Assembly (NCBI GenBank): GCA_028717405.1
Contig: JAQUNY010000001.1
Coordinates: 1-37,423, forward strand
DNA length: 37,423 nt
Direction of reading: 5' to 3'
DNA from: Eubacteriales bacterium
Lineage (GTDB): Bacteria; Bacillota; Clostridia; JAQUNY01
Each line of letters opens with the position of its first letter. Position 1 is the stretch's first letter. The notes beneath the pieces were generated by a model that saw nothing but the letters and a program-made list of their open reading frames with translations, made no database searches and was not told the DNA's origin. Position numbers and translations under genes: made by a program. Below, piece after piece: positions 1,886 to 33,018 of this stretch.

Positions 1886-2036
1886 TTTTTCTTCCACCTT
1901 TCACTTCAGTATGATATGCAGGATCCGCGATGTCCCAGCCCCAACCCTGGCGCCTGTTAACATTCGATCCTGCTACTGCTCATTATATTTCAGCAGACGT
2001 TCCCGTTTATCTCAGATTTTGCTGATTGTTACTCAT

Positions 2037-2885
2037 TTATTGCTTTGCCTTGAATTGAGAGGGCGTACATCCATGCGTTTTCATGAAGACCCTGTTAAAT
2101 GTCTGAATACTGTTAAAACCTGCTTTAAAGGCTGCTTCTGTTACATTGCAGGCTGTGTTTGCCAGATACCACTCCGACTTAACGACCCTGTAACTGGTCA
2201 AATATTTGCCAAAACTCAGCCCTGTCGTTTTTTTAAACAGTCTGTCAAAATAATAAGCACTAAGATTGACACTGTCTGCCGCTTCCGCAAGAGTGATTTT
2301 CCCGGTATAATTTTTGTCGATATATTCAAATACACCGTTTATCCTGAGAAGGTCCGCCACGTTTTTCTCGCCTTCGGTGCGCCTGACAGATATCAACGCG
2401 GTATTTATATGCAATCCGGCAAGCAGCAGCAGCATTTCGGCTTTTACCATCTCGCGGTAAAATCCTTTTTTTGACTTAAATTCATCGATAATATTTTCGA
2501 TCCTTTTTTCAGGTTTATATGCCGCTGATGTTCCTGCCCTGTGAAATACGGTATTTCGCTCAAACAACTCAAAAAACTTTGCTTCATTCTTACGGTCTAT
2601 CCAGATATTCTGCAAAAAAAGTCTGGAATACCTTATAACAAGCACCTTTGAACCTTTTGCTCCAAATGCTTCAAAATAATGTACACATGCCGGGCTTATG
2701 AAAAGGATGTCTTCTTTTTGCATCTCATACGAGTTATTCCCGATCACCGCTTTTATACTGCCGTCAATGATATAAATGACTTCAAAATGCTCATGCCAGT
2801 GCGGAGGGTATTTCAAATCCTCAACTATTGTGAACCGCAGCGGGAAACTGCCGTTCAGCCTTATCTCCTGGTGTCTTGCGCTCAA
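2037..2885 (-). CDS. AraC family transcriptional regulator (N-terminal cupin sensor plus C-terminal AraC HTH)
   Basis: 282-aa ORF. It has a cupin-like N-terminus (PPHWHEHFEVIYIIDG) and a C-terminal AraC-type HTH (FDRLFKKTTGLSFGKYL...GFNSIQTFNRVFMKTHGCTPSQF). The start is a TTG with ACGGAGA 7 nt upstream. Confidence 0.85.
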   Translation of the reverse strand: MSARHQEIRLNGSFPLRFTIVEDLKYPPHWHEHFEVIYIIDGSIKAVIGNNSYEMQKEDILFISPACVHYFEAFGAKGSKVLVIRYSRLFLQNIWIDRKNEAKFFELFERNTVFHRAGTSAAYKPEKRIENIIDEFKSKKGFYREMVKAEMLLLLAGLHINTALISVRRTEGEKNVADLLRINGVFEYIDKNYTGKITLAEAADSVNLSAYYFDRLFKKTTGLSFGKYLTSYRVVKSEWYLANTACNVTEAAFKAGFNSIQTFNRVFMKTHGCTPSQFKAKQ

Positions 2886-2942
2886 AATGGCATCTCCGTC
2901 TTTCTTTTGTTGCAGCGCATCTTCTGCATATCATGCCTGGAT

Positions 2943-6013: not shown

Positions 6014-7051
6014 TTATTGCTCAAAACGCGTGCCTTTTTTTGCTTCAGTTATTACTCTTATGACTTCAAAAGCCTCATCAAGGCTTATCGGGAAAACCGA
6101 GTTTTCTCTTAAGGCCTTATATAACTCATCCCAGATATTGATTTTTACGGCTGGATCAACAGCTATCTCTTCCTCTTTCCATACAAGAACGTCTTTTGTC
6201 GAAAATGCGCCGTCCAGCAATGTACCGGGAAATGCCTCCCTCGCAGGGAGTATTGTTTCCGGATCAAGGTACTTGAGCCTGATCTTTTTACCATCGGATA
6301 CGAGGCTGCCCTTTGTGCCAAAAATCTGATACAGCGGACCGGGTATGGCAACTCCTCCGCTTATCTCCAGGTCCGCCACCCTCCCGTTTTCAGCTCTCAA
6401 TACTATTTTAAGGTGGTCTTCAGCATCTCCTGCAGCCGCTATTTGTTTTAAATCGCTGAAAATATCTTTGACAGGGCTTTCAAGGAAACGAAGGGCGTGA
6501 TCAACAATATGGGGACCCCAATTGAGCATCTGGCCACCGCCGAATTTCATGAGAGTCTGCCAGTCGTCCCTTCTTCCATAGCTGTGCCTTGCCAGTTTGA
6601 TTTCATACACATTTCCCAGGATCCCTGAAGCAATTATTTCCCTTATGTGCAGAAAATCAGGGTCAAATCTTCTGTTATGCCTGATATATAATCGGCCTGC
6701 CGAGGAAGTGTCCGCACTGCGAAGACGCATTGCCTGCGAATAGTTGAGACATGCCGGTTTTTCAAGGAAAACATCTTTCCCTGCCTCCAGTGCCATCAAA
6801 GCATGTTCCATATGGTCTGCCGACCTGGTCGCTATATCAGCCAGCTCAACCTCAGGATCCGCTATCAAATCCCTTATGTTATCATAGACTTTGCAGCCAT
6901 ATCTTTCTGCCATTTTTTGCCGTCTCTCGGGTATAAGATCGCAAGCCGCAACAATATTAAATTTATCCTTCATGTTTTCAAGCTCTTTACAGTGCATTGC
7001 CCATCCGGCACGTCCAATCCCTGCAATCCCGATTTTTACCGGTCTTTTCAT
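6014..7051 (-). CDS. Gfo/Idh/MocA family oxidoreductase
   Basis: 345-aa ORF with the Rossmann N-terminus KIGIAGIGRAG and the EKP motif (FLEKPACL). The RBS AGGAGG lies upstream. Confidence 0.85.
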   Translation of the reverse strand: MKRPVKIGIAGIGRAGWAMHCKELENMKDKFNIVAACDLIPERRQKMAERYGCKVYDNIRDLIADPEVELADIATRSADHMEHALMALEAGKDVFLEKPACLNYSQAMRLRSADTSSAGRLYIRHNRRFDPDFLHIREIIASGILGNVYEIKLARHSYGRRDDWQTLMKFGGGQMLNWGPHIVDHALRFLESPVKDIFSDLKQIAAAGDAEDHLKIVLRAENGRVADLEISGGVAIPGPLYQIFGTKGSLVSDGKKIRLKYLDPETILPAREAFPGTLLDGAFSTKDVLVWKEEEIAVDPAVKINIWDELYKALRENSVFPISLDEAFEVIRVITEAKKGTRFEQ

Positions 7052-7098
7052 TTCTGAAGCCTCCTGATTTTTTTTATTAAACAGCGCAGCTATTCACT

Positions 7099-7127
7099 AT
7101 TATACAAAACAGCAGATATGTTTACAA
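7099..7127 (-). promoter_or_regulatory. Candidate sigma-A promoter for the Gfo/LemA/TPM gene string
   Basis: On the minus strand, TTGTAA (7127..7122) is followed by a 17-nt spacer and TATAAT (7104..7099). This lies about 45 nt upstream of the ATG at 7051. The -35 element overlaps the recD2 stop codon. Confidence 0.4.
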
Positions 7128-9329
7128 GGATGAGAAAGAGCTCTGTGTGCCCTGGCAGAAACAACTGATTTTCTCTTTGAGCATTGTGTTGCGCAATCTT
7201 ATCTTATTATTCGAAACAGATATACTGACTGCTTTTTTTGTACCTACAAGGACAAAAGCTTTTCTTGCTCTGGTTATGCATGTGTAGAGGAGATTTCTCT
7301 GAAGCATAAGAAAATGCTGTGTCGTGAGCGGCGCAACGACTATGGGAAACTCACTTCCCTGGCTTTTATGAACAGTTGTCGCATATGCTACAACGAGCTC
7401 GTCCAGTTCATTTATATCATATTCGGTTTCATTGCCGTAAAAATCAGTGACAAGCGTCCTGTCTTCCATATCGATCCCGGTTATTATCCCGATATCTCCG
7501 TTAAAAACATTTTTTTCATAATTGTTTCTGATCTGCATTACTTTATCGCCAATCCTGTAATTCCTTCCTCCATACTGCAGAAAAGGCGCTCCTTCTTTTT
7601 TACTGTTAAGTGCCTCCTGAAGCATTTCATTCAACTTTACCGTACCGGTATCCCCCTTTTGCATGGGGCATAATACCTGAATGTCGCTTATTGGATCTGC
7701 GCTATAGTAAGGCGGTAGTCTCTTCGTGCAAAGCTCGGTGATAATTTCAGCCACCCTTGCAGGCTCACTCTCTTCAATAAAGAAAAAGTCGCTCTCAGAG
7801 CCGCCCTTCAGCCATGGCATCTCTCCCCTGTTTATCTTATGGGCGTTGGTAATAATTTTGCTTCCCATCGCCTGGCGGAATATCCTCTTGAGTTCGACAA
7901 CCTCAACTTTTCCGGATGAGATAATATCTCTGAGTACATTTCCGGGTCCTACAGAAGGCAGCTGATCGACGTCTCCCACAAGTATTACCGCAGCCTCGTC
8001 CGGCGTTGCCTTGAGAAGGTTATTCATTAAAACAATATCTACCATAGAAGTTTCATCAATTATGAGCACATCGCATTTCAGCGGATTGGAGGAATTGCGC
8101 TTATACCCTTCAGGTGGCTTATATTCAAGCAGCCTGTGTATCGTTTTTGCCTCGCTGCCCGTAGTCTCAGAAAGCCTTTTTGCCGCCCTTCCGGTTGGCG
8201 CAGCCAGCAGGCAGTCGGCTCCAAGCTTCCTGAAAACCTTCAGGATTGCCAAAGTAGTTGTCGTTTTCCCTGTGCCCGGTCCTCCGGTCAGGACCATGAA
8301 TTTTGACGCTGCCGCTTTCCTTATGGCATTTTTCTGTACATCGTCATATGAAAATCCGGCTTCTTTTTCTATATTTAAAATTATTTTATTGATGCTTCCG
8401 GCACTTTGCACCTGTACACGGCTTTTCCCGGCGATAATTTCGCTGATCCTTTTTGCCGTGCCTTCCTCGCTATAGAAAAATGCGGGAAGATATATTGCTT
8501 TACTGCCGGTTTCTTCATGATCCTGCGATATCAGGATTTTTTCATCAATGAGCCCGTCGATTGAAGCGCTTATCTGCCTCTCTTCCAATTGGAGTATTTC
8601 GGAACAGCGCGCGGACAGCTGGTCTCTGAACGCAAAACAATGTCCGTCATCAGAAAGCTCGCCAAGTGTGTAAACTATCCCCGCTTTGATCCTCTCAGGT
8701 GAGTCTCCTTCGTATCCCAGCTTTCCGGCTATCCTGTCGGCCGTTTTAAAGCCAATGCCCCAGATATCGTCGGCGAGCCTGAAGGGATTCTCCTTTACGA
8801 GATCTATACTGCGATTCCCATATCTTTTGAATATTTTTACGGCATAAGCAGTTGAGACGCCATGCCCCTGAAGGAATATCATGACATTCTTGATTTCTTT
8901 TTGTTCTTCCCATGCTGTCTTTATCTTTTCTATCCTGGAAGGGCCAAGGCCTTCGACTTCAGTAAGAAGGTCCGGCATCATATCCAATATTTTAAGAGTT
9001 TCCTCTTTAAAATGTCCCACTATTCTTCTGGCGAAAACCGGTCCGATACCTTTTATCAATCCGCTTCCCAGGTATTTTTCCAGTCCGGCTATAGTGGCAG
9101 GCAGAGTCTCTTTATAAAAATCGACACAAAACTGTGCACCAAACCTGCTGTCCGTTTTCCATTTACCGCTCAGCTCCAGAACCGAACCTATAGAGACGGA
9201 CGCCAGATTTCCAACCACAGTAACAAGGTCCTTATGTTCTTTAGCTTTGATCTTAATAACACAAAAACCGTTTTCCTCATTTGAAAATGTTATGCGTTCG
9301 ACGACGCCTGAAAGGCGTTCCATCAGCAT
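7122..9329 (-). CDS. recD2: ATP-dependent RecD2-like SF1B DNA helicase
   Basis: 735-aa ORF. The N-terminus L.G.VERITFSNEENGFCVIK, the HhH region, Walker A GGPGTGKTT, DETSMVD, VGDVDQLPSVGPG and the C-terminal TVHKSQGSE are all typical of RecD2. The start is 9329 or 9323; both overlap the stop of the upstream VOC gene. Confidence 0.88.
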   Translation of the reverse strand: MLMERLSGVVERITFSNEENGFCVIKIKAKEHKDLVTVVGNLASVSIGSVLELSGKWKTDSRFGAQFCVDFYKETLPATIAGLEKYLGSGLIKGIGPVFARRIVGHFKEETLKILDMMPDLLTEVEGLGPSRIEKIKTAWEEQKEIKNVMIFLQGHGVSTAYAVKIFKRYGNRSIDLVKENPFRLADDIWGIGFKTADRIAGKLGYEGDSPERIKAGIVYTLGELSDDGHCFAFRDQLSARCSEILQLEERQISASIDGLIDEKILISQDHEETGSKAIYLPAFFYSEEGTAKRISEIIAGKSRVQVQSAGSINKIILNIEKEAGFSYDDVQKNAIRKAAASKFMVLTGGPGTGKTTTTLAILKVFRKLGADCLLAAPTGRAAKRLSETTGSEAKTIHRLLEYKPPEGYKRNSSNPLKCDVLIIDETSMVDIVLMNNLLKATPDEAAVILVGDVDQLPSVGPGNVLRDIISSGKVEVVELKRIFRQAMGSKIITNAHKINRGEMPWLKGGSESDFFFIEESEPARVAEIITELCTKRLPPYYSADPISDIQVLCPMQKGDTGTVKLNEMLQEALNSKKEGAPFLQYGGRNYRIGDKVMQIRNNYEKNVFNGDIGIITGIDMEDRTLVTDFYGNETEYDINELDELVVAYATTVHKSQGSEFPIVVAPLTTQHFLMLQRNLLYTCITRARKAFVLVGTKKAVSISVSNNKIRLRNTMLKEKISCFCQGTQSSFSSL

Positions 9330-9715: not shown

Positions 9716-9845
9716 TTTAATACCCTCCTGCCGCGTTGACTTTAAGCTGATTATACAACAATCATGGACTCTTTGCCATATTGCCGGTCTGAAATTATTT
9801 AAGAGTGATGTCAAAGCTCTGTCAGAGCGCTGTCAGGCAGATCTG

Positions 9846-12437
9846 TCAGATTGCAGTGACCGCAAGGCCGTTTTCCCCGATATCCACTTTCACAGTTCTT
9901 CCCGCAGAGACTCCGTCTTTTATGATCATCCTGCCTATTTCCGTTTCGACAAGCTTCTGAATATACCTTTTGACAGGTCTTGCTCCATAAACCGGATCAT
10001 AAGCCTTGTCTGCGATAAAGGACTTCGCAGCTTCAGTTACGTCAAGCTGAATTTCTTTGTCGTCAAGCCTTTTTTGTATATCGGCAAGCGCCAGTCCGAT
10101 TATACTGATGATCTCCGCTTTCCTGAGGGGCTTAAAGAGTACTGTTTCATCAATACGATTTAAAAATTCAGGCTTAAAGCTGCTGTTCAGCTCTCGCATC
10201 ACTGCATCCCGTGTGTCATCCCTTATTTCTCCTTCCTGCGTGATCCCTTCAAGCAGGTAGCGGCTTCCGATGTTGGAAGTCATTATAATCACCGTGTTTT
10301 TAAAATCGACGGTCCTCCCCTGGCTGTCGGTCAGCCTGCCGTCGTCAAGCAGCTGCAGCAGAACATTGAATACTTCAGGATGAGCTTTTTCTATCTCATC
10401 AAAAAGTATCACACAATATGGCTTCCTCCTCACGGACTCAGTCAGCTGTCCGCCCTCTTCATATCCCACATAACCCGGAGGTGCGCCTATCAGGCGTGCT
10501 ACTGAATGTTTTTCCATATACTCGGACATGTCGATACGCACTACATTTTCGTTGCTGTCAAATAAGGCCTCGGACAATGCCTTGGCCAGTTCCGTCTTGC
10601 CCACTCCTGTTGGTCCGAGAAAGATAAAAGAACCGATCGGCCTCCTCGGGTCCTTCAGGCCTGCTCTTGCTCTGATAACGGCATTGCTGACGGCCGTTAC
10701 TGCTTCATCCTGCCCGACGACGCGTTTGTGAAGGATCGTTTCAAGATTCAGAAGCTTTTCTTTTTCGTTTTCAACAAGTCTTGTAACAGGCACTCCGGTC
10801 CATCTGGAAACGATCTCTGCTATTTCGTCTTCGGTGACCTCCTCTTTAAGAAGAACCTGTTCTCCCGATTTCCTCCGCTGTTTTTCTGCATCAAGCATCT
10901 TCACGAGCTCAGGCAGCCTGCCATGCTGAAGCTCCGCGAGCCTGTTCAGGTCGTATCTCCTCTCGGCTTCTTCAATTTGCATTTTCACTTCTTCTATTTG
11001 TTGTTTAATATCCTTTTCTCTTTTTATATTTTCCTTTTCGAGCTCCCACTGGGCTTTCATAGACTCAGATTTACCTTTTAAAGACGTTATTTCTTCCTGA
11101 AGCGCTTCCATCTTTTTCTTAGATGCATCGTCATCTTCCTTCTTTAAAGCTTCTTTTTCAATTTCAAGCTGCATTATCCGCCTTGAGATCTCGTCCAGTT
11201 CCGTGGGCATGCTGTCAATTTCTGTCCTCAGCATAGCTGCCGCTTCATCCATAAGGTCTATAGCCTTGTCAGGCAGGAACCTGTCGCTGATATACCTGTT
11301 GGAAAGCACGGCACATGCAATCAGAGCGCTGTCGGTAATCCTCACTCCATGATGTATCTCAAATTTTTCCTTAAGTCCTCTTAAAATTGAAATAGTATCT
11401 TCGACTGAAGGCTGGTCGACCATTATCGGCTGGAACCTTCTTTCAAGCGCAGCATCTTTCTCTATATACTTCCTGTACTCATCAAGAGTGGTTGCTCCTA
11501 TACAGTGAAGCTCGCCCCTTGCAAGCATGGGCTTGAGTATATTGCCGGCATCCATCGCCCCTTCGGCTTTCCCCGCGCCAACAATATTGTGCAGTTCATC
11601 TATGAACAAAATGATTTTACCATCAGACTTGTTTACATCATTGAGTACGGCCTTCAGGCGCTCTTCAAACTCACCTCTGTACTTGGCTCCGGCTATAAGG
11701 GCTCCCATATCAAGCGCAAAAATCGTTTTGTCTTTCAGGCCTTCAGGAACATCACCTTTCAGTATCCTCTGGGCAAGGCCTTCCACAACCGCAGTCTTGC
11801 CTACTCCGGGTTCTCCGATCAGTACGGGGTTGTTTTTTGTCCTTCTTGAAAGGATCCTGACCGCCCTTCTTATTTCATTGTCCCTCCCAATGACAGGATC
11901 AAGCTTTCCTGTGCGAGCAAGCTCCACGAGGTCCCTGCCGAACCTTTTCAGCGAATCATAGGTCTCCTCCGGGTTTCTTGATGTTATACGCTGGTTGCTC
12001 CTCACCTTGCTGAGCGCAGCCATGAATTTTTCAGGTGTGATGCCGAAACGCCTGAACAACGATTGAGACGGAGTATCCTTTTCTTTAAGTAAAGCCATAT
12101 ACATATGCTCTACACTTGTGTATTCATCCTTAAAACGTTTTGCTTCATCTCCGGCACTGACCAGTATTTCATTTACACGCCTTGATGCATAAAGGCCGTC
12201 AGAACTCCCGCCATAAACACCGGGGAGTTTCTTCAGTTCGGCTTCAACTGCGCTTATATAATCTTCTGTATCGATTCCCATGTAGCCTGCCAGCTTTGTT
12301 ATGAGACTGTCTTCAATAGTCAGCAGAGCATAATGTATGTGCTCACCCTCTATCTGTTGATGCCCCATCCTTACCGCAGTCTCCTGAGCTCCGGATATTG
12401 CTTCTCTTGCTTTGTCTGTAAACCTTTCGATATTCAT
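9846..12437 (-). CDS. clpB: ATP-dependent chaperone ClpB (class 1 AAA+ disaggregase)
   Basis: 863-aa ORF. It has a Clp N domain and two AAA+ modules (GEPGVGKTA and GPTGVGKTE Walker A motifs). A long coiled-coil M domain lies between them ([10 protein letters not shown]...LQEEITSLK...). The C-terminal D2 small domain is present. Confidence 0.95.
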
Positions 12438-21834: not shown

Positions 21835-23400
21835 TCAAGCGTCTTTCCCATTATCTGCACCAAATGAGTCTCTTATTTCCGCTTCCATCTCCTCGTATTT
21901 ATCAAGCAGCTTTATGAAAGTTTCAACTACTTCTCCGTCAAATTGGGTTCCCTTATTACCCTTAAGCTGTTTCACTGATTCCTCAAGGCTCATCTTTGGC
22001 CTGTAACTTCTGTCTGAAGTCATTGCATCAAATGCATCTGAAACAGCCAGTATCCTGGCCATCAAAGGTATCCCGTCCCCTTTGAGATTATCTGGATACC
22101 CTTTTCCGTCAATTCTCTCATGATGGCTCCTGACAACGGGAACGACTTCCCTGAAAAGAGATGATGCCGCCAGTATCTGCGCGCTTCTCAGTGGATGCTT
22201 TCTCATCTCTTCAAATTCCTCTTCCTCCAGTGCAGACGGTTTGAGAAGGATATTATCTGATATGCTTATCTTACCTATATCATGAAAAATGCCGCTGATC
22301 CTGAGCGTTTCAACCTGATCTCCGTTTAAGCCCATTGCTTCCCCTATCCGGGCCGAATAGTACGAGACCCTGTCAGAATGGCCTCTGGTATATACATCCT
22401 TTGCACCTACTGCCTGGCGCAAAGCTTCTATCGTATCGATATAGCTTTTTTTAAGCTGATCATATGTTCTTTCTATTTCATCATTTTTTCTTCTTACCAG
22501 ATCGTGGAGACAAATATTGCTGACAGCTGCCGCAACCTGTTCTGCAAAAATCTCTAAAAGCCTCTCTGTTTCTTCATTTGTATCACACTCGGTGTATATT
22601 GATCCAATAAATCCTGAAAATCTGTCTTTAAGAGGAAGAAGCATACCACCGGCCATCTTTAAAGGCCTTCCGAAAATCCTGGCTTCTTCGATCCCCGCCA
22701 GCAATTCCCTGTCAAGAAGCATTCTGTAATCCTTCTCTTCGGGAATCTCTCCTGCAGCAAATTCTCCCGTCCCTTTGAAAATTGTTTTTTTGACTTCAGT
22801 CTGCCCTGAACTGTTTCCTCCGCAGCTGTCATTTTCTGTATTTATTTCTGCCAGTATAAAGGAATTTTCCCTGCCGATTATCCGATTCATTTCCCCGAGC
22901 ACATTCATAAGGGCAGTATTAAAATCATTCAGATGATAAATCCTCGGAACAGAGTCAATTATGCGTCCCAGCCCATCCTTGAAGCTTTTTATCGTTCTCA
23001 TCTGGGCAACCGATTTTATTCCGGATTCGATAAGCAATAAAAGCTGCTCAAATTTATCGCTTTTCTCGCAATAGCCCTGTATATCAAGAGCTTTGATTGT
23101 TTCAAGCGGCGGTGCTATATCCTTATGTCCTGTGAGGAGGAGTATGTAAATATCTTTGTCGAATTCCCTTATGCTTTCAACGACCTTGTCTCCGTGTATG
23201 GGATTCATAAGATAGTCCAGTATCAGTAAATCATAATGTTCTTCCCTTAATATTCCCAGGGCTTCCACAGGGTCGGTAAAACCAGCGCAGCCATACCCGC
23301 TGCGGTTAAGTATAACCGAAAGTGAATCTATTATGCCTTCCTCATCATCTACAACCATGATCCTGTATTTTGATGACAAGTCCACCCTTTTTCTTCTCAT
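21835..23400 (-). CDS. Response regulator with REC, GAF-like and HD-GYP domains (predicted c-di-GMP phosphodiesterase output)
   Basis: The receiver domain reads IMVVDDEEGI...LLILDYLMNP...LLLTGH. A central segment of about 170 aa has a GAF-like pattern. The C-terminal HD-GYP domain reads GHSDRV...HDIGKI...HHERIDGKGYP. I prefer the ATG at 23400, which has GAGG 7 nt upstream; a GTG at 23403 is also possible. Confidence 0.85.
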   Translation of the reverse strand: MRRKRVDLSSKYRIMVVDDEEGIIDSLSVILNRSGYGCAGFTDPVEALGILREEHYDLLILDYLMNPIHGDKVVESIREFDKDIYILLLTGHKDIAPPLETIKALDIQGYCEKSDKFEQLLLLIESGIKSVAQMRTIKSFKDGLGRIIDSVPRIYHLNDFNTALMNVLGEMNRIIGRENSFILAEINTENDSCGGNSSGQTEVKKTIFKGTGEFAAGEIPEEKDYRMLLDRELLAGIEEARIFGRPLKMAGGMLLPLKDRFSGFIGSIYTECDTNEETERLLEIFAEQVAAAVSNICLHDLVRRKNDEIERTYDQLKKSYIDTIEALRQAVGAKDVYTRGHSDRVSYYSARIGEAMGLNGDQVETLRISGIFHDIGKISISDNILLKPSALEEEEFEEMRKHPLRSAQILAASSLFREVVPVVRSHHERIDGKGYPDNLKGDGIPLMARILAVSDAFDAMTSDRSYRPKMSLEESVKQLKGNKGTQFDGEVVETFIKLLDKYEEMEAEIRDSFGADNGKDA

Positions 23401-23452
23401 CACAATACCTCAGGCAACAGAATATCAATTACCGATATATCAATTGTCTAAA

Positions 23453-25276
23453 TCAGATGGTTTCAGGAATCGATATGTAAAAAGTGGTCCCCTCTCCTTC
23501 TTTTGATTCGAACCACATATTCCCGCCGAATCTGCCTTTTACATTGGCATAGGATATATAAAGCCCCAGGCCGGTTCCTTCTTTCCCCTTGGTCGTTATC
23601 ATTTCCTTGAACAGTTTCGGCTTAATATCTTCCTTTATCCCCTCACCATAATCCTGTATGGTAAATACAATATTACTATTATCATCTTTTTTGATGTTTA
23701 AGTCAATATCGCCGCTGGAGCCTTTATATGCTTGTATGGCATTTATTATCAGATTATCAAAAACCTGTATCATATTGCTGATATCTCCATCCAGCTTGGT
23801 ACCCATATCGATTTCTGAACTTACATTCAGCCTGCAGTGATATTTATTCAGTTCGTGCTTCATCAGCAATTCGACTCTCTTTATAAGTTCGTCTAATGTA
23901 AAGCTGAATAGAAAGGGAGTATTGTATTGGACAGTCTGCCCCTTGACAGTAGTGATGATATCAGACATATAAGAACAGTGAGGCTTCATCTTTTCAAGCC
24001 AGCCGGCCATTTCTGAAGCAATTTCATGGTGATCATCCCCGGTCACCAGTTCGTCGTCAATAGACTCATCATATTCGGCAACAAGGTCCTTCAATGCCTC
24101 AATGCCCCCCGAAACCGACATTATAGGCGTCTTGAGGTTGTGTGCTATGCCGCCGACCAGCTGTCCCAGCGAAACCAGCCTCTCGTGTTCCATAAGTATG
24201 CTTTGTTTTTCCTTTATGGTCTGCAGGTCCTTTACACTCTGCGTGATATCTTTAAGCAGGATGATTGCGCCGAGATAATTTCTTCTGGAATATATCGACG
24301 TTACCTCTATCATAAAATATTTATCAAAAGATCCCTCTCTTATATGCCTCTCAAAGGTTTCTGCCTTACGCGACTTTCTGGCCTTTGTTATGAATTCGGA
24401 TAATTCGTCTCCGTTTATTCCCATTTTCAGTTTTACATCCAGCAAATCGGGGAAATAATCATTCCTTTTTATACGGTAAAAATACTCAAACATATCAGCA
24501 AAGGTCCTGTTAAAGTCGACAATCCTCATTTCTTCATTTAGTACTACAAAACTGTCCGATATAAGGTCAACAACATTTTTAAGGGCTATAGGCACTATAT
24601 TGAGAAAATTGAATTTCATAATAGCATAGGCGTACATCACCACTGCTATTGAAAATGCCACAGGTGTGGCATATGCATTCAGTTCAGCCAAATTGAAGGT
24701 GGCCATTACATTAACGATAAGCGGTATCATTGTTCCAATAATTATCAGAAGCGATTGCCTGGAAATAAGGCCTGAATTTTTAATTGAAGTCCTGATGAGA
24801 AAGAACAGACCTGTTATAAAACATCCGTAGGAATACACGGCATGCACCAGGAAATAATAACCCGGCATTGTCTCGCTGTTGTTAAGCGAATATTTAATAT
24901 AAAAAAGCCCGTGCAAATCGTTTGTCATGTATATTACGGCAGACAACGCCGGGATAATTAACAGTAATAAATATCTTTTTGTAAAAACGATCTTTGATCT
25001 GGCAAATATCAGTCCGAAAAGCAGCATGGCAAGAGGCGTAAAAATCAGTCCAATATGCGTGACCGACAGATAAAAATTGTACGTTTTCCATTCGAACAGA
25101 TCCGCATAGGTCTCCATCAACAAGCCTATATCCCAGAGTATCATAAAAAACAGATAGCTCAGGAAAACATAATGTATCTGCGACTTATTCCTCATTTTCA
25201 GTATGAACGCCATTATTGCGGCGACAAGCAGAAGTGAAATATGAAGCATTGTGAATGAAACTGCTATGTCAGTCAT
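23453..25276 (-). CDS. Sensor histidine kinase with an N-terminal multi-pass (7TM-type) membrane domain, PAS, HisKA and HATPase_c
   Basis: About 230 aa of consecutive hydrophobic helices are followed by a PAS-like segment. The H-box is LVGGIAHNLKTPIMSV, and the N/G boxes are NLIINAIQA, QDYGEGI and GTGLGLYIS. I prefer the ATG at 25276, which has GAAGGTGAG upstream and overlaps the NRPS stop by 8 nt. The ORF-track start at 25297 has no RBS. Confidence 0.85.
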   Translation of the reverse strand: MTDIAVSFTMLHISLLLVAAIMAFILKMRNKSQIHYVFLSYLFFMILWDIGLLMETYADLFEWKTYNFYLSVTHIGLIFTPLAMLLFGLIFARSKIVFTKRYLLLLIIPALSAVIYMTNDLHGLFYIKYSLNNSETMPGYYFLVHAVYSYGCFITGLFFLIRTSIKNSGLISRQSLLIIIGTMIPLIVNVMATFNLAELNAYATPVAFSIAVVMYAYAIMKFNFLNIVPIALKNVVDLISDSFVVLNEEMRIVDFNRTFADMFEYFYRIKRNDYFPDLLDVKLKMGINGDELSEFITKARKSRKAETFERHIREGSFDKYFMIEVTSIYSRRNYLGAIILLKDITQSVKDLQTIKEKQSILMEHERLVSLGQLVGGIAHNLKTPIMSVSGGIEALKDLVAEYDESIDDELVTGDDHHEIASEMAGWLEKMKPHCSYMSDIITTVKGQTVQYNTPFLFSFTLDELIKRVELLMKHELNKYHCRLNVSSEIDMGTKLDGDISNMIQVFDNLIINAIQAYKGSSGDIDLNIKKDDNSNIVFTIQDYGEGIKEDIKPKLFKEMITTKGKEGTGLGLYISYANVKGRFGGNMWFESKEGEGTTFYISIPETI

Positions 25277-28200
25277 TGCTCTCACCTTCTTCCCCATTTA
25301 TATAGCTTGTGATCATGGCTGAAAGATATCGGGCTTCCGGCTTATTCCATTCAAATCCGAGTTTTTTAAGGTATCTTACTGTTTTAAGTCTCTGCACCCT
25401 GACCGGCAGCCTGTCACCTTTTTCCTTAATATAATCCATTCTCTGTATTACTCCCTTCAGAATATCAGCATAAGAACCATCTTCAGACAATTTTCTGATA
25501 AGCGCATCATATTCCCCTGCATTCATTTTTTTGATTCCGGCCCCCATTTTGCGCATTGCCGCCGCTATGTCTTCCAGTCCCAGTGTGTCGCCTGCGATAT
25601 GATATGTCCTTCCACAGTTACATTTTCTGCATGCGATGAGCCATACTGCCCTGGCACACAAATCTACCGGTGTAAGATCAATTTTACTCTCTGTACCGGA
25701 CCCTGTTGTTCCCGGGCAATATGCGCCCAGTCTGTACATTGCGTATATCATATTCCGAAATGCATTCTGACCTGTATTTATCTGAAAACGTCCGTCCTCA
25801 TACCTTGGCGTAATATTGCCGACTCTGAGAACAGCTGCTTTCAATCCATCCTCCGCCATTTTGTTGAGGATCTTCTCAGCTTCATATTTACTTCTTATAT
25901 ACGGATTACTGATCTCCTGCCCGATATCAAGGCTGTTTTCAGAAAAGACAGGAGCCATGCCTGCCAGCTTGACCGGGTCATAAACTCCCGCAATACCCGT
26001 TGTCGAAATATGGTACAGACACGCTCCGGACGATTGGGCGGCAGCTGCTGCTGTGACAGCGCCTTCAATGTTCGTTTTTGTAAAAGCCTCTTTTCTGCCA
26101 TAATGGCTCACAAGAGCAGCACTGTTTATCACTGCATCGGTACCCTCAACCAATCCCAAATAATCGTTTTCCGGCAGGCCGAATTTTTCCAGAGAAATGT
26201 CACCCTCAACAGCAAATATCCTTTTTCCAAACAATTGATCATATTTATTTCCAAAATAGAATCTGATAATCCCGGCAAGCCTTTTATCCGGGCTCATGTC
26301 ACTGTGATGCCTGATTATACAATACACATCGGCGCCGGATTCTTCTGCGATCACTGCAAGTATGTGTGCTCCCAGAAAGCCTGTTGCTCCTGTGAGAATA
26401 ATTTTTTTCATCTTATCATTGTCTTCATGCATCCCGCCATTTTCTGTGCCGCCTCTGTAATCTTTTTTATTGTCAAAAGCCAGGTAGTGTTTACCGTTAT
26501 AAACGATCTCAGGGTTTTCATTCACTGAGCTGTCTACGGCAGTGTTTCTCTTTCCTGCAATAATTTTTTCAGCCAGCCTCCTGATCGTTTGATATCTGTA
26601 AAAATCCTGCGTATGCAAACCCCAATTATAAGGAAATGCCTTTATCTGTACTTGAAGTATTGCGAGCGAATCACCCCCGCGATCGAAGAAATTATCATCT
26701 ATCCCAATATTTTCTTTCATGTCGAGGACTTCTTTCCATATCGATGCGAGCTGTTCATGAACCTTGTTTTCAGGCGCACTGTAAACGGCTTCACTCTGAC
26801 TTTGAACAGGTACTGTAGAAAGGGCTGTTCTGTCAATTTTACCGCTGGGTGTCAGAGGCATTGAATCAATTTTTCCAAAATACCCCGGTATCATGTACTC
26901 AGGCAGCCTGTCCGAAAGAAATTCTCTCAATTCTGCTATGGATATTTCTTCAGTTGAAATATAAAAAGCGCAAAGGCTTTTTCTTCCCTGCTCATCCTCC
27001 TTAAGGACCACCGCGACTTCCTTTATCCTCTCATGCTCAGAAAGCCTGCTTTCTATTTCACCCGGTTCGATCCTGTACCCACGTATTTTTACCTGGTGGT
27101 CGATCCTCCCCATAAATTCAAGATTGCCGTCCGCACCCCATCTTGCTATATCTCCGGTTCTATACATTATCATCCCCGGAGAAAACCTGTCAGGCAGGAA
27201 TTTCTCCGCAGTAAGCTGCGGCTTACCTAAATATCCCTTCCCGACACATTCACCTGTTATGTAAATCTCGCCCCATACACCGATCGGAGACAATGAGCCG
27301 TTTTTGTTCAAAACGTACACACCTGAATTACAAACCGGTTTGCCTATCGGCGGTACGGAAGGAATGTCTTTCCCAGGGTCAACTGTATACATTGTGGCAA
27401 CATGCGTCTCGGAAGGTCCATAATGATTATGCAGAAAAATCCTTCTTTCCTTAAGGAATTTTTTTAAAGTATTGTTTATTATAAGCTGTTCCCCAGCAAC
27501 AATTATATGCTTCAGCGAAAGAGGCAGCCTTTCAATTACACTTCTGTCAGATGCCATCAGTTTGAGATACGACGGCGGTATAAACAGAACGCTGACTTGT
27601 TCTTTTCCCGCCAGGTCTGTAAGTCTGACAGGATTCCTCTTTATCTCCTCATCTGCTATAACCAGTCTGCCTCCCGCCAGTAAAGTACTGAATATTTCCT
27701 GATAGCAAACATCAAAGCTTATTGTAGTAAACTGAAGGACATTAGCGCGAAAATCAATATTTGAGGAACCATATTCGGTCCGGATCAGATTTATGATGCA
27801 GCGGTGCGGTATAATAACGCCTTTTGGCCTGCCTGTCGAGCCTGATGTATATATAATGTATAATGTGCTTTCAGGATCTGCATCATGAAAAGCCTGGCCG
27901 GCATTTGCATTATATAAGGCATTGCCGGGCATGGACCGATCTCCTGTCTCCCGCACAAAATCCAAATCATCAATCACATTGCAGTCCCCTGAAGCTCTTC
28001 TGATCCTTATTATCCTTCCATTATATCCGGGGGGCACTTCACCCTCTCCGTCCCGGCAGATAAGCAGCGACGCTCCACTGTCATGAAGCATGTAAGCGAT
28101 TCTTTCTTCCGGGTAGTCCGGATCAAGCGGCAGGAACGCAGCTCCGGTTTTTATAATTGCAATAAGACATGCGACAAAGGTCGGCGAACGCTTCATCATA

Positions 28201-31200
28201 ATGCCTGCAACAGTACCTGAAGCAGCACCTTCGGATGCGAATGTCCTGCCAAGTCTTTCAGATAGCCTGTCAAGATCAGAATAGGAAATACTTTCGCCTT
28301 CACAGGTAACGGCGGCTGCATCAGGATACCTGGCGGCGCATTCTGAAAATGCACTGTGAATGGTATTTAACATTTTCAGGCCATTATCATTGCATAAACC
28401 GAGGTTATTCAACTCGTTGGTAAGGTTTTTCTTTTCTTTTCCTGATAATATATCAATATCAGAAATATGTGTTTCAGGTTTTTTAAGAACTTCCTTTATG
28501 ATATTGATATAATGTGAAGCCATTCTCTCAATTGTTTCTTTATCAAAAAGGTCAGAACTGTATTCAAGATTGAATATAATTCCTTCTTCCTTCTCTGTTG
28601 CCTCAAGAAGCATGTCGAATTTACTTGTTTCATTAAAAGCCTTGTAAGGAGTGAGCCTCAGTTTTCCGCTTCCTGCAGGTTCTCTGACCACGTAGCTGGC
28701 ATTTTCGTTTTTCTGCAATACAAACATCACATCAAAAATCGGATTTCTGCTTGGATCTCTCCTGACCTTAAGCTTGACGACAAGCTCATCAAACTGGCAA
28801 TCCTGGTTTTCAAAGGCTTTCAAAGAATTATCTCTGACAGAATGCAGAAAATCAGAAAAGCTCATTCCCCCGGCAGGAAAATTTCTCATAACAAGAGTAT
28901 TGGCGAACATGCCAATTATACCATTGGTATCGGCATGCCTGCGCCCGGTGACCGGTGTGCCGACGAGGATATCCTCCTGTCCGCTGTAGAACGCAAGCAA
29001 TACATTGTATGCAGCCAGAAGAAACATATACAGTGTAGCCGAGTGCTCAGATGCAATTTTTTTCATACAGGCAGTAAGGCTTTCATCTGCATAAAAGCTG
29101 TAAGTACTCCCCCTGTAAGTCTTTATTGATGGCCTTGGCCTGTCTGCAGGTATCATCAGCACAGGGATCTCATCCGACAGAAGCTCAAGCCAATATTCTT
29201 CCTGCTTCTTCAGATATCCTGATTCAAAAAGCCTGTTTTGCCACTCGGCAAAGTCTTTATATTGCGCTTTGACACGGCTGAGATCCGCTCCTTCATAAGT
29301 CTGTACAAGCTCGCTCATAATAATTCCGGCAGACACTCCGTCCGAAATGATATGGTGCATATCAATAAAAAGATAGTGTTTATCCAAAGGCAGAGTTATA
29401 AGCACCGCCCTGAAGAGAGGGGCTTTATCAAGCCTGAATGGTTTCGAAAATGATGCTGCCGCAATTCTTGCGAACAACTTGGGCTCATCAGCATGCTTAA
29501 GGACACCGGTCGGCAGGGATTCCCATAAAACCTCCTCATAGTCAGCGTCAACTTTGTCTGTGATGATCTGCACCGGCCCGCTGTCAGTGTTCCTGAAGCA
29601 GGTTCTCAGCGCTTCATGCCTCTTGATAAGTTTTTCTATGGATTTTCTTAATCTCTGTTTATCAAGATTTCCTTCTATCTGCAATATTCCCGAAGTATTA
29701 TATGCAGTACCGGTATCTTGCTGTTCAGTTAAAAGATAGAGCCTTCTCTGAGCCGCGGAAAGTTTATAGGATTCCTTTACAGGAACCGGAGTTATCGGCT
29801 CAAAGATATTTCTGGCGGTTTTTTCAATCATTAATGCAAGCTTCTCAACAGTCGGGTTGTTATACACATCTGTAGTTGATATCTCAACATTAAAGACTTT
29901 ATGTACCATGGATACCAGATATACAACACTCAGCGAATCTCCTCCGGATTCAAAGAGGTCGTCGTCAATACCGGCTTCACTTATACGCAACATGCTCTTC
30001 CATATGTCGGACAGCAGGATTTCTGTATTTGTTGAGGGCGGGCGGTAAGGCTTAGTATCTGTTCTGATGTAAACAGGCTTGGGAAGCATCGTTTTGTCAG
30101 TTTTTCCGCTTGCATTCACCGGCATGCTGCTTATCTGAGTAAAATATGACGGTATCATATAATCCGGAAGGAACCTTGATAAAAACGATCTCAGATAAGC
30201 ATTGTCAAGCTGTCTTTCTGCAGTATAGTAGGCACACAGTGTCTTCTTCCCTTCGCTGTCCTCCATGTCTGTGACAAAAACAGACTGCATATGTTCAAGC
30301 TGCATGAGCCTGCTTTCTACCTCACCGGTCTCTATCCTGTACCCTCTGATTTTGATCTGTCGATCTGCCCTTCCCGAAAATCTGATTTCACCGTTTGAAG
30401 TCCATTTCCCCAAATCGCCTGTGCGGTATATCCTCCCTTTGCTTCTGAAAGGATCTTTCAGGAAATTATTTCCCGGATGAATACCGCTGTTAATATATCC
30501 TATAGCCGGAGCTTCTCCTCCTATATAAATCTCGCCCTCTACTCCCGGCGGTACAGGCTTCATATTATTGTCAAGAATATAAATAAAAATATTTGCTGAA
30601 GGTTTCCCGAGAGAAATATCCCAGGCATTTACAATTTCCTTGAGTGTAGCTCCTATAGTGGCTTCAGTCGGGCCATATGCGTTATAAATTTTTGCTCTTG
30701 TCATCCGCCTTACTTTGTCCAGAAATCCAGGCCCGAAATCCTCTCCGCCTATCACAATTTCCTTTAAAATGCCAAGACATTCAGAGCTTTTTTTGTCGCT
30801 TATAAACATTCCCAGCCTTGAGGGTGTGATATAAAGCTTGTCAACCCCATATCTGAGTATAAGCTCCGAGAGCTTCCAGGGTACTTTTTGGGCCTCGTCA
30901 TCCGCAATTATGACGGTCAGGCCTTTCAGAAGGGAAGGTATCAGTTCGAAAATAAAAACATCAAATGAAATTGAAGTTATGGATAGAATCTTTGCGCCTT
31001 TTTTAAACAGGAGGCGTTCCGCTATTCCATGCGAAAAATTCACAAGTGACCTGTGGCTTACCACAACTCCCTTCGGAGTGCCTGTCGACCCCGAGGTAAA
31101 GAGGACATAAGCCGGATCTTCAGCTTTGTGCTTTTTCTCCAATAAATGCAGGGGAATCAGGCCTGTTTTTTCCAGGCCTTCAGTTTCAACTATTTTATGT

Positions 31201-32945
31201 ATGCCTGGATCATAATACCCGCTGTTTTTAATACTGTTTCCCAGCCCTGCCTGAGCTGCAATTATCCTTGTCCCGCTCTCCCTGACCATTAATCCTGCCC
31301 TGGCATCAGGATAGCCTGGGTCAACAGGGAGAAATGAGCACCCCGCCTTGAGCACTCCCAGTATGATTACTGCCAGATCAACAGATCTTCCTGCTATGAT
31401 ACCTGCTGTTTCGCCCTTCCTGAGGCCGTTTTCCAAAAGCCGTTCCGCAAATAGTGAGGCTTTTATATCCAGCTCTCCATATGTCAGTGCGGCATCTTCC
31501 GAAATAACTGCAATCGCGTCAGGTGTCCTTGCCGCCTGTTCTTCAAAAAGACAGTCCACAGTTTTGTCAAGCCTGTATTTTTTCACAGTATTGTTGAAGT
31601 CAATGAGCACTGCATTTATTTCCTCATCACTCATTACCCTGAGTTCTGAAGCTTTTTTCCCGGGATCAGCAACGATATCTTCAAGTATAAATACGAGACG
31701 CCTGTGGATACCGTTTATGTCATCTTCAGTGAAAAGTCCCTTCATGCAGTCGTAATCGATCTCAATACTGCCGTCATTGTCTCTCTCATTCACATGTATA
31801 CAAAGCGGATCAGTCTGATTTCCATTGAAAAGCCACTCAGCCTCATATTCGCCGATCCTTTCAAACAGGTTAAGCCTGGCATTCTGGTATGACAGGACTA
31901 TTTCATATAAATTATGTGAAAACCTCTGTTTTTCTCTCAGCTCTCTGAGAAGTTTTTCATAAGGATACTGGTGGTGCCTTAGTATCCTCATCCAATCAGC
32001 TGCAAAGCCCCTGGCCAGCGATGTGAAATCCTTTTCACCATCGAAATTTATTCTGAATGGTATTGTACTTACAAACATACCGGAAACGTTTTTCTCTTTC
32101 CTGTTTATCCTGTTGAGCACAGGAGTCCCTATCACAAAATCACGGCTCCCATGGATCCTGCTTATATAGACTGAAACCGCTGCAAGGAACAGGATAAAAG
32201 GCGAAATGCCGTTGGACGAGCAGTATTCACCAAGTGAGCCTGCAAGAACAGGATCAAGCCTGTATGTCCTTCTTGTAGATTCAGTCCCTGTAAGATGAGA
32301 ATGCCTGTTTTCCTTCAGCACAGGTTCCGGTATTTTTTCAAAGCTTTTGATCCAGAAATCTCTGTCCGCAACGGGTCTTTCAGATGACAGATAATCGTTT
32401 TCGCGTTTTATAAATACATCATAGCCCGGAAACTCTTCTTCCGGGATCTCTTCTCCCGTTTTAAGACATGTGTAATACCTGACAACCCGGTTTGTAAGCG
32501 ACACCATAGTCCATGCATCACATATGAAATGATGCAGTTTAATATAAAATCCTCCGCCTGAGCCGGCGGTCCTGAAAACAGCAAAATAGTGAAGGCACGA
32601 ATCCGCAAGTACAAAGGGAGTCGCGGTCATTTGCCCTTGCCATCTTTCAAGCTCCTCCCCGTCATTTCTGCTAAAATCAAAATATTCTGTTTTTGCCGGA
32701 AGCCCATTGTAAAAATACTGATGAGGCTCTGTATCAGGATCGGATATCCTGATTGAAAGAGACCTGTCTCTCCGGAGGATAACGGCGATTGCTTCCATGA
32801 GCAATTCACAGTCACAATCATTTTTAATTTTAATTATAGCGGCGATGTTTCCGATCGATGTTCCCGAATAAAGCTTCTCGAGGTACCATATTCCCTTCTG
32901 CGGCTGAGTCAAAGGATATCTGCCAGAATTACCCGCCATTTGCAT
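25269..32945 (-). CDS. Bimodular non-ribosomal peptide synthetase: starter C - A - T - C - A - T - thioester reductase (R)
   Basis: Single intact 2558-aa ORF. All core NRPS motifs were located by eye (see the sub-features). There is no E, TE, Cy or MT domain. The second in-frame ATG at 32939 is better spaced from the RBS GGGGGA than the first ATG at 32945. Confidence 0.97.
   Translation of the reverse strand: [2558 protein letters not shown]
25326..26408 (-). other. NRPS terminal thioester reductase (R, SDR-type NAD(P)H-binding) domain, about aa 2180-2540
   Basis: The sequence [16 protein letters not shown] gives the Rossmann motif TGxxGxxG (aa 2185-2192). YIRSK gives YxxxK at aa 2349-2353. 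It is the final domain after T2, and no thioesterase is present. Confidence 0.85.
26556..26768 (-). other. NRPS domain T2 (peptidyl carrier protein), about aa 2060-2130
   Basis: [16 protein letters not shown] with the Ser at aa 2093. Confidence 0.9.
26820..28373 (-). other. NRPS domain A2 (adenylation, proline-like specificity code), about aa 1525-2042
   Basis: Motifs found: [29 protein letters not shown] (1699-1709), FDVCYQE (1744-1750), [48 protein letters not shown], and PSGK (K2036). The hand-aligned 10-residue code is DVQFIAHVAK. Confidence 0.85.
28446..29774 (-). other. NRPS domain C2 (condensation, LCL-like), about aa 1058-1500
   Basis: The N-terminal motif is [13 protein letters not shown] and the HHxxxDG motif is HHIISDG at aa 1197-1203. 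There is no preceding E domain. Confidence 0.85.
29811..30032 (-). other. NRPS domain T1 (peptidyl carrier protein), about aa 972-1045
   Basis: [14 protein letters not shown] with the phosphopantetheinyl Ser at aa 1004. Confidence 0.9.
30081..31568 (-). other. NRPS domain A1 (adenylation), about aa 460-955
   Basis: Motifs found: LTYGEL (aa 487), [23 protein letters not shown] (616-626), FDVFIFE (661-667), NAYGPTE (755-761), [16 protein letters not shown] (840-848), [20 protein letters not shown], and A10 NASGK (K948). Confidence 0.9.
31626..32921 (-). other. NRPS domain C1 (starter/lipoinitiation-type condensation domain), about aa 9-440
   Basis: The HHxxxD motif is HHFICD at aa 138-143. 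The N-terminus [25 protein letters not shown] resembles my recollection of the surfactin SrfAA starter C domain (YPLTDAQKRIWYTEKFYPHTSISN). This is the first domain of the protein, with no upstream T domain. Confidence 0.7.
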
Positions 32946-32989: not shown

Positions 32990-33018
32990 ATTTTATCATA
33001 ATATTTCCTTTTAGTTAA
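32990..33018 (-). promoter_or_regulatory. Candidate promoter immediately upstream of the NRPS gene
   Basis: On the minus strand, TTAACT (33018..33013) is followed by a 17-nt spacer and TAAAAT (32995..32990), with the extended -10 TGa. It lies in the AT-rich 138-nt gap between phoU and the NRPS. Confidence 0.45.

Follow-up and report, generated by a model that had tools for sequence, protein, structure and literature searches.

A conserved peptide synthetase, 7TM kinase and HD-GYP regulator cassette of Clostridia as a candidate self-signalling system

Why would a bacterium join the gene for a non-ribosomal peptide synthetase (NRPS), end to start, to genes for a membrane sensor kinase and a second-messenger enzyme? 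The question is raised by a 37,423-nt stretch of DNA from an Eubacteriales bacterium (assembly GCA_028717405.1, contig JAQUNY010000001.1, positions 1–37,423; hereafter the window), in which an NRPS gene (25269–32945, 2558 amino acids (aa)), a sensor histidine kinase gene with a seven-transmembrane (7TM) domain (23453–25276, 607 aa) and a response regulator gene with an HD-GYP output domain (21835–23400, 521 aa) follow one another on the minus strand. We consider it probable that the three genes form a self-signalling cassette of signal, receptor and output, with the NRPS product as ligand of the kinase. A preliminary description of the window had offered this as one possibility and the sensing of a host or membrane cue as another. 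The argument rests on the conservation of the cassette and on the coupled divergence of the 7TM domain and the substrate specificity of the NRPS.

The survey covered one genome per species, scanned with an alignment of 38 kinases. At least 594 species genomes contained a kinase relative, such relatives numbering in the thousands, and the best 80 loci were examined with 10-kb flanks; these and five loci from look-ups gave 82 non-redundant loci (individual loci are denoted here by L and a number). Among the best 80, kinase identity was 41–58 %, and nearly all were from Clostridia of digesters and of human, rabbit, mouse and goat gut. Wherever upstream DNA was available, a same-strand NRPS lay directly upstream of the kinase; the only exception in gene order was L022 (8227–11800), which reads NRPS–regulator–kinase. 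The NRPS–kinase spacing had a median of 12 nt, being within 60 nt in 70/79 loci and an overlap in 15/79, which indicates that close coupling is conserved and the 8-nt overlap of the window itself is not. A REC-(DUF3369)-HD-GYP regulator was nearby in about 90 % of loci and adjacent to the kinase in 63/82, either as REC-DUF3369-HD-GYP (~500 aa; 32 loci, for the most part of digester or other environmental origin) or as REC-HD-GYP (~350 aa; 31 loci, chiefly in gut genomes). In thirteen others it was encoded elsewhere: on the same strand but 4–5 kb downstream in seven, on the opposite strand in five and ahead of the kinase in L022. A TraG/VirD4-like block was seen between kinase and regulator in gut loci L020, L027, L042, L071, L072, L084 and L092 (12667–16564), and its insertion places the regulator 4–5 kb downstream of the kinase.

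The surroundings of the cassette were far more variable than the cassette. Twenty-nine neighbour families were counted on each side, including mutS2, typA, tex and htrA-like genes, so the three genes stay together as the flanking families change. The architecture of the NRPS also varied while kinase and regulator stayed: written as condensation (C), adenylation (A), carrier (T), reductase (R) and thioesterase (TE) domains, C-A-T-C-A-T-R preceded the kinase in at least 47 loci and C-A-T-R in 11, with C-A-T-TE, C-A-T-C-A-T-TE and a split C-A-T-C plus A-T-R also found, and every complete NRPS began with a condensation domain. Approached from the kinase, the proposal that these genes are syntenic partners is thus strongly upheld, with an NRPS upstream wherever DNA was available and a regulator mostly adjacent. 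Two contigs with typical Clostridia cassettes, L065 and L069, carry the labels Burkholderiales and Bacteroidota, probably binning errors in metagenome-assembled genomes.

In the window, the coupling of the first two genes can be read directly from the DNA. The NRPS gene ends ...AGC AAT GAC TGA, with its stop codon at 25271–25269, and the kinase ATG (25276–25274) sits within AATGACTGA, so that the two genes overlap by 8 nt (ATGACTGA, 25269–25276, minus strand). A Shine-Dalgarno-like GAAGGTGAG lies within the last NRPS codons (25289–25281), its GAAGG core 8 nt ahead of the kinase ATG. The NRPS end, embedded start, overlap and ribosome-binding site had all been proposed in the preliminary description, and each was borne out. 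The 607-aa kinase form starting at 25276 is also that of public gene calls on three other contigs; the 77 %-identical homologue L004 has the identical overlap, and five further loci also overlap by 8 nt. Another ATG in frame is found 21 nt before the kinase start (25295–25297); its use would add MGKKVRA and lengthen the overlap to 29 nt. No Shine-Dalgarno sequence precedes the ATG at 25297, and gene callers pass it over. Between kinase and regulator lies a 52-nt spacer (23401–23452, minus strand) with a GAGGT Shine-Dalgarno sequence and no predicted terminator. The spacer of 49 nt described earlier holds if the regulator starts at GTG 23403, and becomes 52 nt with ATG 23400 of the public gene calls. 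Promoter and terminator scans inside the cassette gave no usable signal, the only strong terminator lying after the glutamate dehydrogenase gene gdh (20176–20154). Of the suggestion that the genes form one translation unit, the close spacing proved to be the rule across loci, and coupling by overlap only occasional (15/79).

The specific case for the NRPS product as ligand comes from the way in which the loci differ from one another. Specificity codes of the A domains (nine pocket residues) differ widely between cassettes, and over all loci the mean identity to the window kinase was 37 % for the 7TM domain, 39 % for PAS, 61 % for the DHp (dimerization and histidine phosphotransfer) domain and 53 % for the catalytic ATPase (CA) domain. 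A pairwise Mantel-type test was significant; because relatedness inflates such tests, the argument was built instead on sister pairs that share no member and on pairs of nearly identical loci. In 28 disjoint sister pairs, 7TM divergence exceeded kinase-core divergence by a median of 0.07 where the code was the same (n=11) and of 0.31 where it differed (n=17; Mann–Whitney p = 9e-6). At core distances of 0.12–0.20 the two classes did not overlap, six same-code pairs having 7TM distances of 0.17–0.38 and six different-code pairs 0.44–0.63. Where the kinase cores differed by 10 % or less, the 7TM domain was conserved in 11 same-code pairs and diverged in none, while for different codes it had diverged in seven and was conserved in one, a pair that differs at two pocket positions only.

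Near-identical loci show where the exchanged DNA begins and ends. L056 and L065 are ~93 % identical in nucleotide sequence over 21.7 kb save for two islands, one inside A2 (6990–8200, 60–75 %) and the other corresponding to the 7TM domain (9830–10700, 64–71 %); T2-R between the islands, PAS, kinase core, regulator and flanks are 92–97 % identical. At the protein level identity is 91–99 % throughout, except for A2 (60–77 %) and 7TM (70 %). L109 and L099 likewise differ only in two islands, one covering A1 (1500–3300, Val-like versus Pro-like code) and one covering the R end and 7TM (7070–8450), with the intervening 3.6 kb (C2-A2-T2-R) 92–100 % identical and the sequence from PAS onward 94–98 % identical. 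Simple hitch-hiking of neighbouring sequence cannot explain two separate islands with conserved DNA between them. Between L109 and L116, the flanks are 98–100 % identical, the starter C domain is 99 % identical, and identity falls to 56–67 % in a single block that begins with A1 and ends at the PAS/DHp junction. L072, L099, L109 and L116 form a group of four alleles: their kinase cores differ by only 0–3 %, yet each has its own code pair, and their 7TM domains are 44–55 % different. More distant pairs show comparable replacements: of A2-T2-R and 7TM in L027 versus L084, and of module 1 and 7TM-PAS in L041 versus L061, with module 2 kept. Against its closest relative, L004, the window shows the same trend, with nucleotide identities of 53–60 % in R, 63–68 % in 7TM, 69–74 % in PAS, 76–78 % in kinase core and REC, and 71–81 % in gdh. 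Contigs assembled from metagenomes can be chimeric; the island pattern nonetheless recurs in independent assemblies. Downstream of the kinase, L109 has a second short variable stretch relative to both L116 and L099 (11460–12034, 61–83 % with gaps), in DNA that is otherwise 95–100 % identical.

The co-divergence of 7TM and A-domain specificity beside a constant kinase core gives specific support to the idea of the NRPS product as 7TM ligand, and is not explained by sensing of a host or membrane cue; this co-variation argues for the product as the probable kinase ligand.

What might the ligand be? The window NRPS has the domain order C(starter)-A1-T1-C2-A2-T2-R (25269–32945, minus strand) and is the proposed signal synthase. 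Pfam finds Condensation, AMP-binding and PP-binding domains, two of each, and at the C-terminus NAD_binding_4, the terminal reductase (aa 2175–2558; 25272–26423, minus strand; E value 1e-39). The motifs are intact, with HHFICDA in C1, HHIISDG in C2, GGDSL in both carriers, and GATGFLG and YxxxK (YIRSK) in R. The protein thus has the tested features of a terminal-reductase NRPS: C-A-T modules, His motifs, the carrier Ser and an R domain of the short-chain dehydrogenase/reductase type with GxxGxxG. Its pocket segments, extracted by motif, are aa 641–790 for A1 (30576–31025, minus strand; code DVFYVGAIG) and aa 1726–1875 for A2 (27321–27770, minus strand; code DVQFIAHVA). The segment equivalent to the A1 pocket is a divergence island between otherwise near-identical loci. 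The A2 code resembles DVQFIAHVVK, which we take to be the canonical proline code, and the second residue of the product is probably proline. The N-terminal C domain had CDA-C1 and 7c1h among its top PDB sequence matches, presumably both starter C domains used for N-acylation; this relationship fits N-acylation without proving it. From the domain order, the product would be an N-acyl dipeptide aldehyde (or alcohol). An AMP-binding gene, absent from the window, was noted just upstream of the NRPS and usually divergent from it in L029 (1092–2375) and about 14 other loci, including L030, L033, L057, L061, L064, L076, L080, L082 and L086. By its motifs it looks like a long-chain acyl-CoA ligase and could supply an acyl starter. 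The single-module NRPSs of L012 and L028 end in a ~350-aa domain past the carrier which is neither R nor TE by Pfam, has a weak NAD(P)-binding-like match and may be an unrecognised release domain.

Signalling partners are not shared by every NRPS that ends in a reductase. A protein search with the T-R region was unusable for a census, its matches all being of 940 aa or less and the query's own protein missed; three matches were informative, with one more distant match outside the cassette. A metagenome scan with the same region gave 80 loci, and in an R-domain distance tree of 152 sequences 95 kinase-linked and 44 kinase-free NRPSs separated, 38 of the latter forming one pure clade. Nearest neighbours in the tree agreed in status for 95/95 kinase-linked and 41/44 kinase-free sequences. 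It follows that the signalling partners go with a single clade and are not general to NRPSs with a terminal reductase. Six kinase-free loci were inspected, and downstream they carried a phosphopantetheinyl transferase (PPTase) gene in three, an AMP-ligase-like gene in two and a MatE fusion in one. A PPTase follows the NRPS in L145 (7584–9902), L118 (7891–8538) and L131 (7793–9256); in L131 the PPTase is fused to a cytidylate kinase, and in L145 a MatE transporter-HATPase_c_2 fusion comes first. The kinase-free sister clade thus resembles an ordinary biosynthetic cluster in its gene content. Viewed from the NRPS, then, the proposed synteny holds for one clade and fails in its sister, which has a PPTase or transporter in place of the kinase.

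The kinase has the domain order 7TM-PAS-DHp-CA, supported by Pfam, public gene calls and AlphaFold2. Its Pfam matches are HisKA_7TM (PF16927; E value 9.3e-38, profile positions 4–224 of 224), PAS_9, HisKA and HATPase_c. In the 614-aa version, HATPase_c ends at residue 613, and Pfam finds neither REC nor HPt. The full-length model (predicted local distance difference test (pLDDT) 79.5) matches solved structures of PAS histidine kinases. HisKA_7TM (aa 1–225; 24602–25276, minus strand) is the proposed determinant of ligand specificity; modelled separately (24572–25276) it forms seven helices with a short beta hairpin between TM4 and TM5 (pLDDT 90.7; predicted TM-score (pTM) 0.88), and its conserved residues are T118, H122, Y150, S172 and Q174. 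The charged loops suggest a topology with the N-terminus out and the C-terminus in. A PAS domain follows (aa 236–345; 24242–24571, minus strand; PAS_9 and model), which co-varies with the NRPS in some allele pairs and not in others. In the DHp and catalytic ATPase core (aa 351–607; 23456–24226, minus strand), the phospho-acceptor is His379 in GGIAHNLKTP (codon 24142–24140); H379, N508/N512, DxGxG and GTGLGL (N, G1 and G2 boxes) are invariant across the 38 homologues aligned. A fold search with the 7TM model returned eukaryotic bundles of G-protein-coupled receptors (E value 0.007–0.04, TM-score ~0.6, root-mean-square deviation 5–7 Å), which are generic and were not taken as homology. The lipid receptors LPA1 and CB1 stood near the top of these weak matches and were not counted as evidence of a lipid ligand. 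In L091 (10428–13263), the kinase is split into two open reading frames (ORFs; 7TM-PAS and HATPase_c) and the next ORF, a 326-aa regulator, matches REC only; decay of the cassette or faulty assembly could account for this.

From these parts we propose the following mechanism. The NRPS would make a small N-acylated amino-acid or dipeptide aldehyde or alcohol, or an acid where TE replaces R. This lipophilic product would be recognised by the 7TM domain of the kinase encoded downstream, with a contribution from PAS in some lineages, and the kinase would phosphorylate Asp62 of the adjacent REC-DUF3369-HD-GYP regulator. The output would be hydrolysis of a cyclic dinucleotide, most likely cyclic di-GMP (c-di-GMP), rather than transcription; phosphorylation might stimulate or restrain it, and the signal may be shared between cells. 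In this way the organism would convert the level of its own metabolite into the level of a second messenger.

A closely related explanation is that the producer monitors itself, its kinase detecting its own product, or the membrane perturbation caused by it, so that the circuit would provide feedback or self-protection instead of a quorum signal shared between cells. Such a role is suited by the joint translation of synthase and receptor in one cell, by the lack of an exporter in the cassette and by the expected partitioning of an N-acyl peptide into the producer's membrane. General sensing of membrane perturbation, however, could do without a receptor that fits the amino-acid portion of the product, and allele-specific pairing at near-identical flanks is the pattern of known pherotype systems that act between cells. 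We regard self-monitoring as unlikely, noting that private and public use of a specific ligand are compatible with the same data.

The genes might instead be co-expressed only, the kinase sensing an unrelated external, host or membrane cue, with the lipopeptide, perhaps a surfactant or protease inhibitor, and a low c-di-GMP level both belonging to one lifestyle programme (for example, motility or dispersal). This leaves unexplained why the 7TM domain is replaced where A specificity changes while core, regulator and flanks remain 92–100 % identical, and why an NRPS stands beside the kinase orthologues in every locus examined; we therefore find it very unlikely. It is nevertheless consistent with the sister NRPS clade, which functions without the kinase, and with the regulator, which has no DNA-binding output and so cannot regulate the NRPS promoter directly. 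It can also draw on how little HisKA_7TM domains themselves reveal: we know of no ligand for any of them, and the literature that we found naming the domain concerns archaeal and eukaryotic kinases only.

The remaining question is what the regulator does. Its Pfam matches are Response_reg (E value 4e-17), DUF3369 and HD_5 (E value 6e-35)/HD, with no DNA-binding domain among them, which bears out the HD-GYP output (HHERIDGKGYP) without DNA-binding domain that had been described. The receiver pocket has DD at positions 18–19 and Asp62 as phospho-acceptor; the receiver motif was present in 58/63 downstream ORFs scanned, and at least two of the five failures were spurious ORF fragments. Aligned residue by residue with the HD-GYP structure 4mcw, the window regulator keeps the H, HD, H, HHERIDGKGYP and D motifs, and the metal-ligand motifs are kept in 60/61 cassette regulators. 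In 4mcw, a glutamate precedes the first metal-binding His by four residues; the window regulator has a tyrosine at the aligned position. We take that glutamate to be the third-metal ligand of a trinuclear site, and the window site may therefore be binuclear; in other HD-GYP enzymes, a binuclear site has been linked to stopping at pGpG. The best solved relative of the domain is the c-di-GMP enzyme 4mcw, followed at nearly equal score by the cGAMP-specific V-cGAP3 (5z7c; cGAMP, cyclic GMP-AMP). A second c-di-GMP enzyme is apparently encoded beside the cassette of L010 (13803–16409), where an 869-aa multi-helix membrane-GAF-GGDEF-HD-GYP protein lies on the same strand ~1.7 kb past the regulator.

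A census of HD-GYP proteins assigns regulators of REC-HD-GYP architecture to an RpfG family and those with REC-DUF3369-HD-GYP to an RpfY family, and reports c-di-GMP hydrolysis by studied members or isolated domains, sometimes phosphorylation-dependent (10.1101/2021.11.05.467447). It describes DUF3369 as GAF-like (10.1101/2021.11.05.467447), so that, of the REC-GAF-HD-GYP order first assigned to the window protein, REC and HD-GYP stand, and the supposed GAF domain is DUF3369. A further alternative accepts the linkage and assigns the regulator another output, either action on a different nucleotide, for example 3'3'-cGAMP, or mainly protein–protein contacts. The V-cGAP3 match, the tyrosine at the presumed third-metal position and the census report that some RpfG-family members are inactive or act via protein interactions (10.1101/2021.11.05.467447) are in keeping with it. 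Set against these are the retention of the core HD-GYP motifs, the best match to 4mcw, the GAF-GGDEF-HD-GYP protein after the regulator in one locus and the census finding that HD-GYP is the predominant c-di-GMP hydrolase of clostridia (10.1101/2021.11.05.467447), and we see only a slim chance that c-di-GMP hydrolysis is not the output. Finally, chance adjacency and carriage as mobile-element cargo are ruled out by the occurrence of the cassette in at least 29 chromosomal contexts beside housekeeping genes.

Several points weigh against the self-signalling interpretation itself. The evidence is comparative throughout; the statistics of co-variation use related sequences, and independent allele switches are few, in two groups among close pairs and about three among pairs at middle distance. 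One pair, L038 and L047, has different A2 codes and no extra 7TM divergence. The codes were read by motif alignment to the window; some resemble the canonical Ser, Thr, Gly, Val and Pro codes, many others carry no assignment, and the substrate assignments made are tentative. As to gene content, the sister NRPS clade works without a kinase, six of the 82 loci had no HD-GYP regulator within 5.5–10 kb downstream, and the cassette includes neither an exporter nor a PPTase. The regulator alone cannot close a transcriptional autoinduction loop, and with a cGAMP-specific enzyme as its second-best solved relative (5z7c) its substrate may be a nucleotide other than c-di-GMP.

Among known systems, the cassette is most readily set beside the Rpf/DSF (diffusible signal factor) system of Xanthomonas (RpfF, RpfC and RpfG), in which the synthase of a lipophilic signal, a polytopic kinase and an HD-GYP-output regulator are clustered and a self-made signal is coupled to c-di-GMP turnover, as we propose for the cassette. 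The cassette, too, encodes synthase, membrane kinase and REC-HD-GYP regulator together, and its gut-type regulators have exactly the RpfG architecture. RpfF, however, belongs to the enoyl-CoA hydratase (crotonase) family and makes a cis-2-unsaturated fatty acid, whereas the cassette synthase is an NRPS with a predicted acyl-peptide signal; no crotonase-family match was found in 27 larger window ORFs, including every ORF of at least 160 aa on the gene-bearing strands. RpfC is a hybrid kinase with REC and HPt, in contrast to the non-hybrid HisKA_7TM-PAS kinase of the cassette; the host is a member of the Clostridia, and the window regulator has the extra DUF3369. Given a synthase that is not RpfF-like and a kinase that is not hybrid, we consider the cassette an analogue of Rpf/DSF and not a member. 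The window regulator shares its REC-DUF3369-HD-GYP architecture with VCA0210 of Vibrio cholerae and DVU0722 of Desulfovibrio vulgaris (RpfY family), neither of which is linked to an NRPS or a 7TM kinase.

In its allelic pattern, the cassette is reminiscent of agrBDCA of staphylococci and comQXPA of Bacillus, where the signal genes and the kinase membrane domain form matched variants within one population beside a conserved kinase core. Here, too, a hypervariable signal-specifying block and the membrane part of the kinase vary together beside a conserved core and flanks (L109/L116, L109/L099 and L056/L065). The agr and com signals, in contrast, are ribosomal peptides processed by AgrB or ComQ and read out by DNA-binding autoinducing regulators, where the cassette has an NRPS A domain and an HD-GYP enzyme. 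CqsA/CqsS of Vibrio and LqsA/LqsS of Legionella also pair the enzyme for a small hydrophobic signal with a polytopic kinase encoded beside it, and the CqsS and LqsS histidine kinases sense their signal in the membrane. They differ in their synthase, a pyridoxal phosphate-dependent acyl-CoA transferase, in a phosphorelay that leads to a transcription factor and in having no HD-GYP protein, and their parts are non-homologous to those of the cassette.

On the chemical side, gut Clostridia NRPSs with a terminal reductase reportedly make peptide aldehydes, a family described by Guo and colleagues in Cell in 2017. They are said to have one or two modules ending in T-R and to come from anaerobic Firmicutes, as do the cassette NRPSs; where such an enzyme begins with a C domain, its expected product is an N-acyl peptide aldehyde. 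The window clade is distinguished by its kinase and HD-GYP regulator, where the kinase-free sister clade has a PPTase, AMP-ligase or MatE transporter. An NRPS-like enzyme is also encoded by the pvf cluster of Pseudomonas. As in our proposal, an enzyme of NRPS type makes the signal of that system, which belongs to proteobacteria and has no dedicated receptor kinase or HD-GYP regulator. The small molecule of the Pvf system is used as a population signal (PMC10194917). Our literature search, whose coverage is incomplete so that an earlier description is possible, found no account of an NRPS associated with both a HisKA_7TM kinase and an HD-GYP regulator, and the cassette and its co-variation point to an undescribed self-signalling system.

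In the window, the cassette and gdh lie between a pstSCAB-phoU operon and a two-component system (17169–37351). Along the minus strand, pstS-pstC-pstA-pstB-phoU (37351–33084) is followed by a 138-nt gap, the NRPS (32945–25269), the kinase (25276–23453), the regulator (23400–21835), a 210-nt gap and gdh (21624–20290). A terminator-like hairpin downstream of gdh is the strong one mentioned above, and beyond it are an OmpR-type regulator and a HAMP-PAS kinase (19840–17169, minus strand), which look like a PhoPR-like pair. The phoU–NRPS gap contains a promoter-like site, TTAACT-17-TAAAAT preceded by TG (32990–33018, minus strand; 9/12 consensus matches), which is weak evidence, as the region does not clearly exceed shuffled expectation in its number of such sites. 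Terminator prediction gave none in this interval, and an Rfam scan of the window for riboswitches or other RNA elements returned zero matches at gathering thresholds. Downstream, L004 shares gdh and the regulator and kinase genes with the window; on the upstream (pst/phoU) side its contig ends.

What does the cassette mean for these bacteria? Anaerobic Firmicutes, gut bacteria among them, commonly carry small NRPS genes, most of which have no known native role. The cassette would give such enzymes a concrete role, as makers of a signal that is received by a dedicated kinase and converted into a second-messenger level. It would also supply a candidate ligand class for HisKA_7TM, a membrane sensor domain without a known ligand, together with a natural set of matched and mismatched signal–receptor alleles for work on specificity, and a Gram-positive counterpart of Rpf/DSF logic whose components are unrelated. 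Should the signals be public, they could influence how strains interact in gut and digester communities. More tentatively, and as a possibility that we rate at somewhat less than even, N-acyl peptide aldehydes and acids made by NRPSs may serve hundreds of species of Clostridia, gut commensals included, as a chemical language with matched 7TM receptor kinases, private strain alleles and a direct c-di-GMP readout. If true, this would be a new class of Gram-positive cell–cell signalling, and would provide HisKA_7TM with its first ligand class and a large set of orphan NRPSs with a physiological role.

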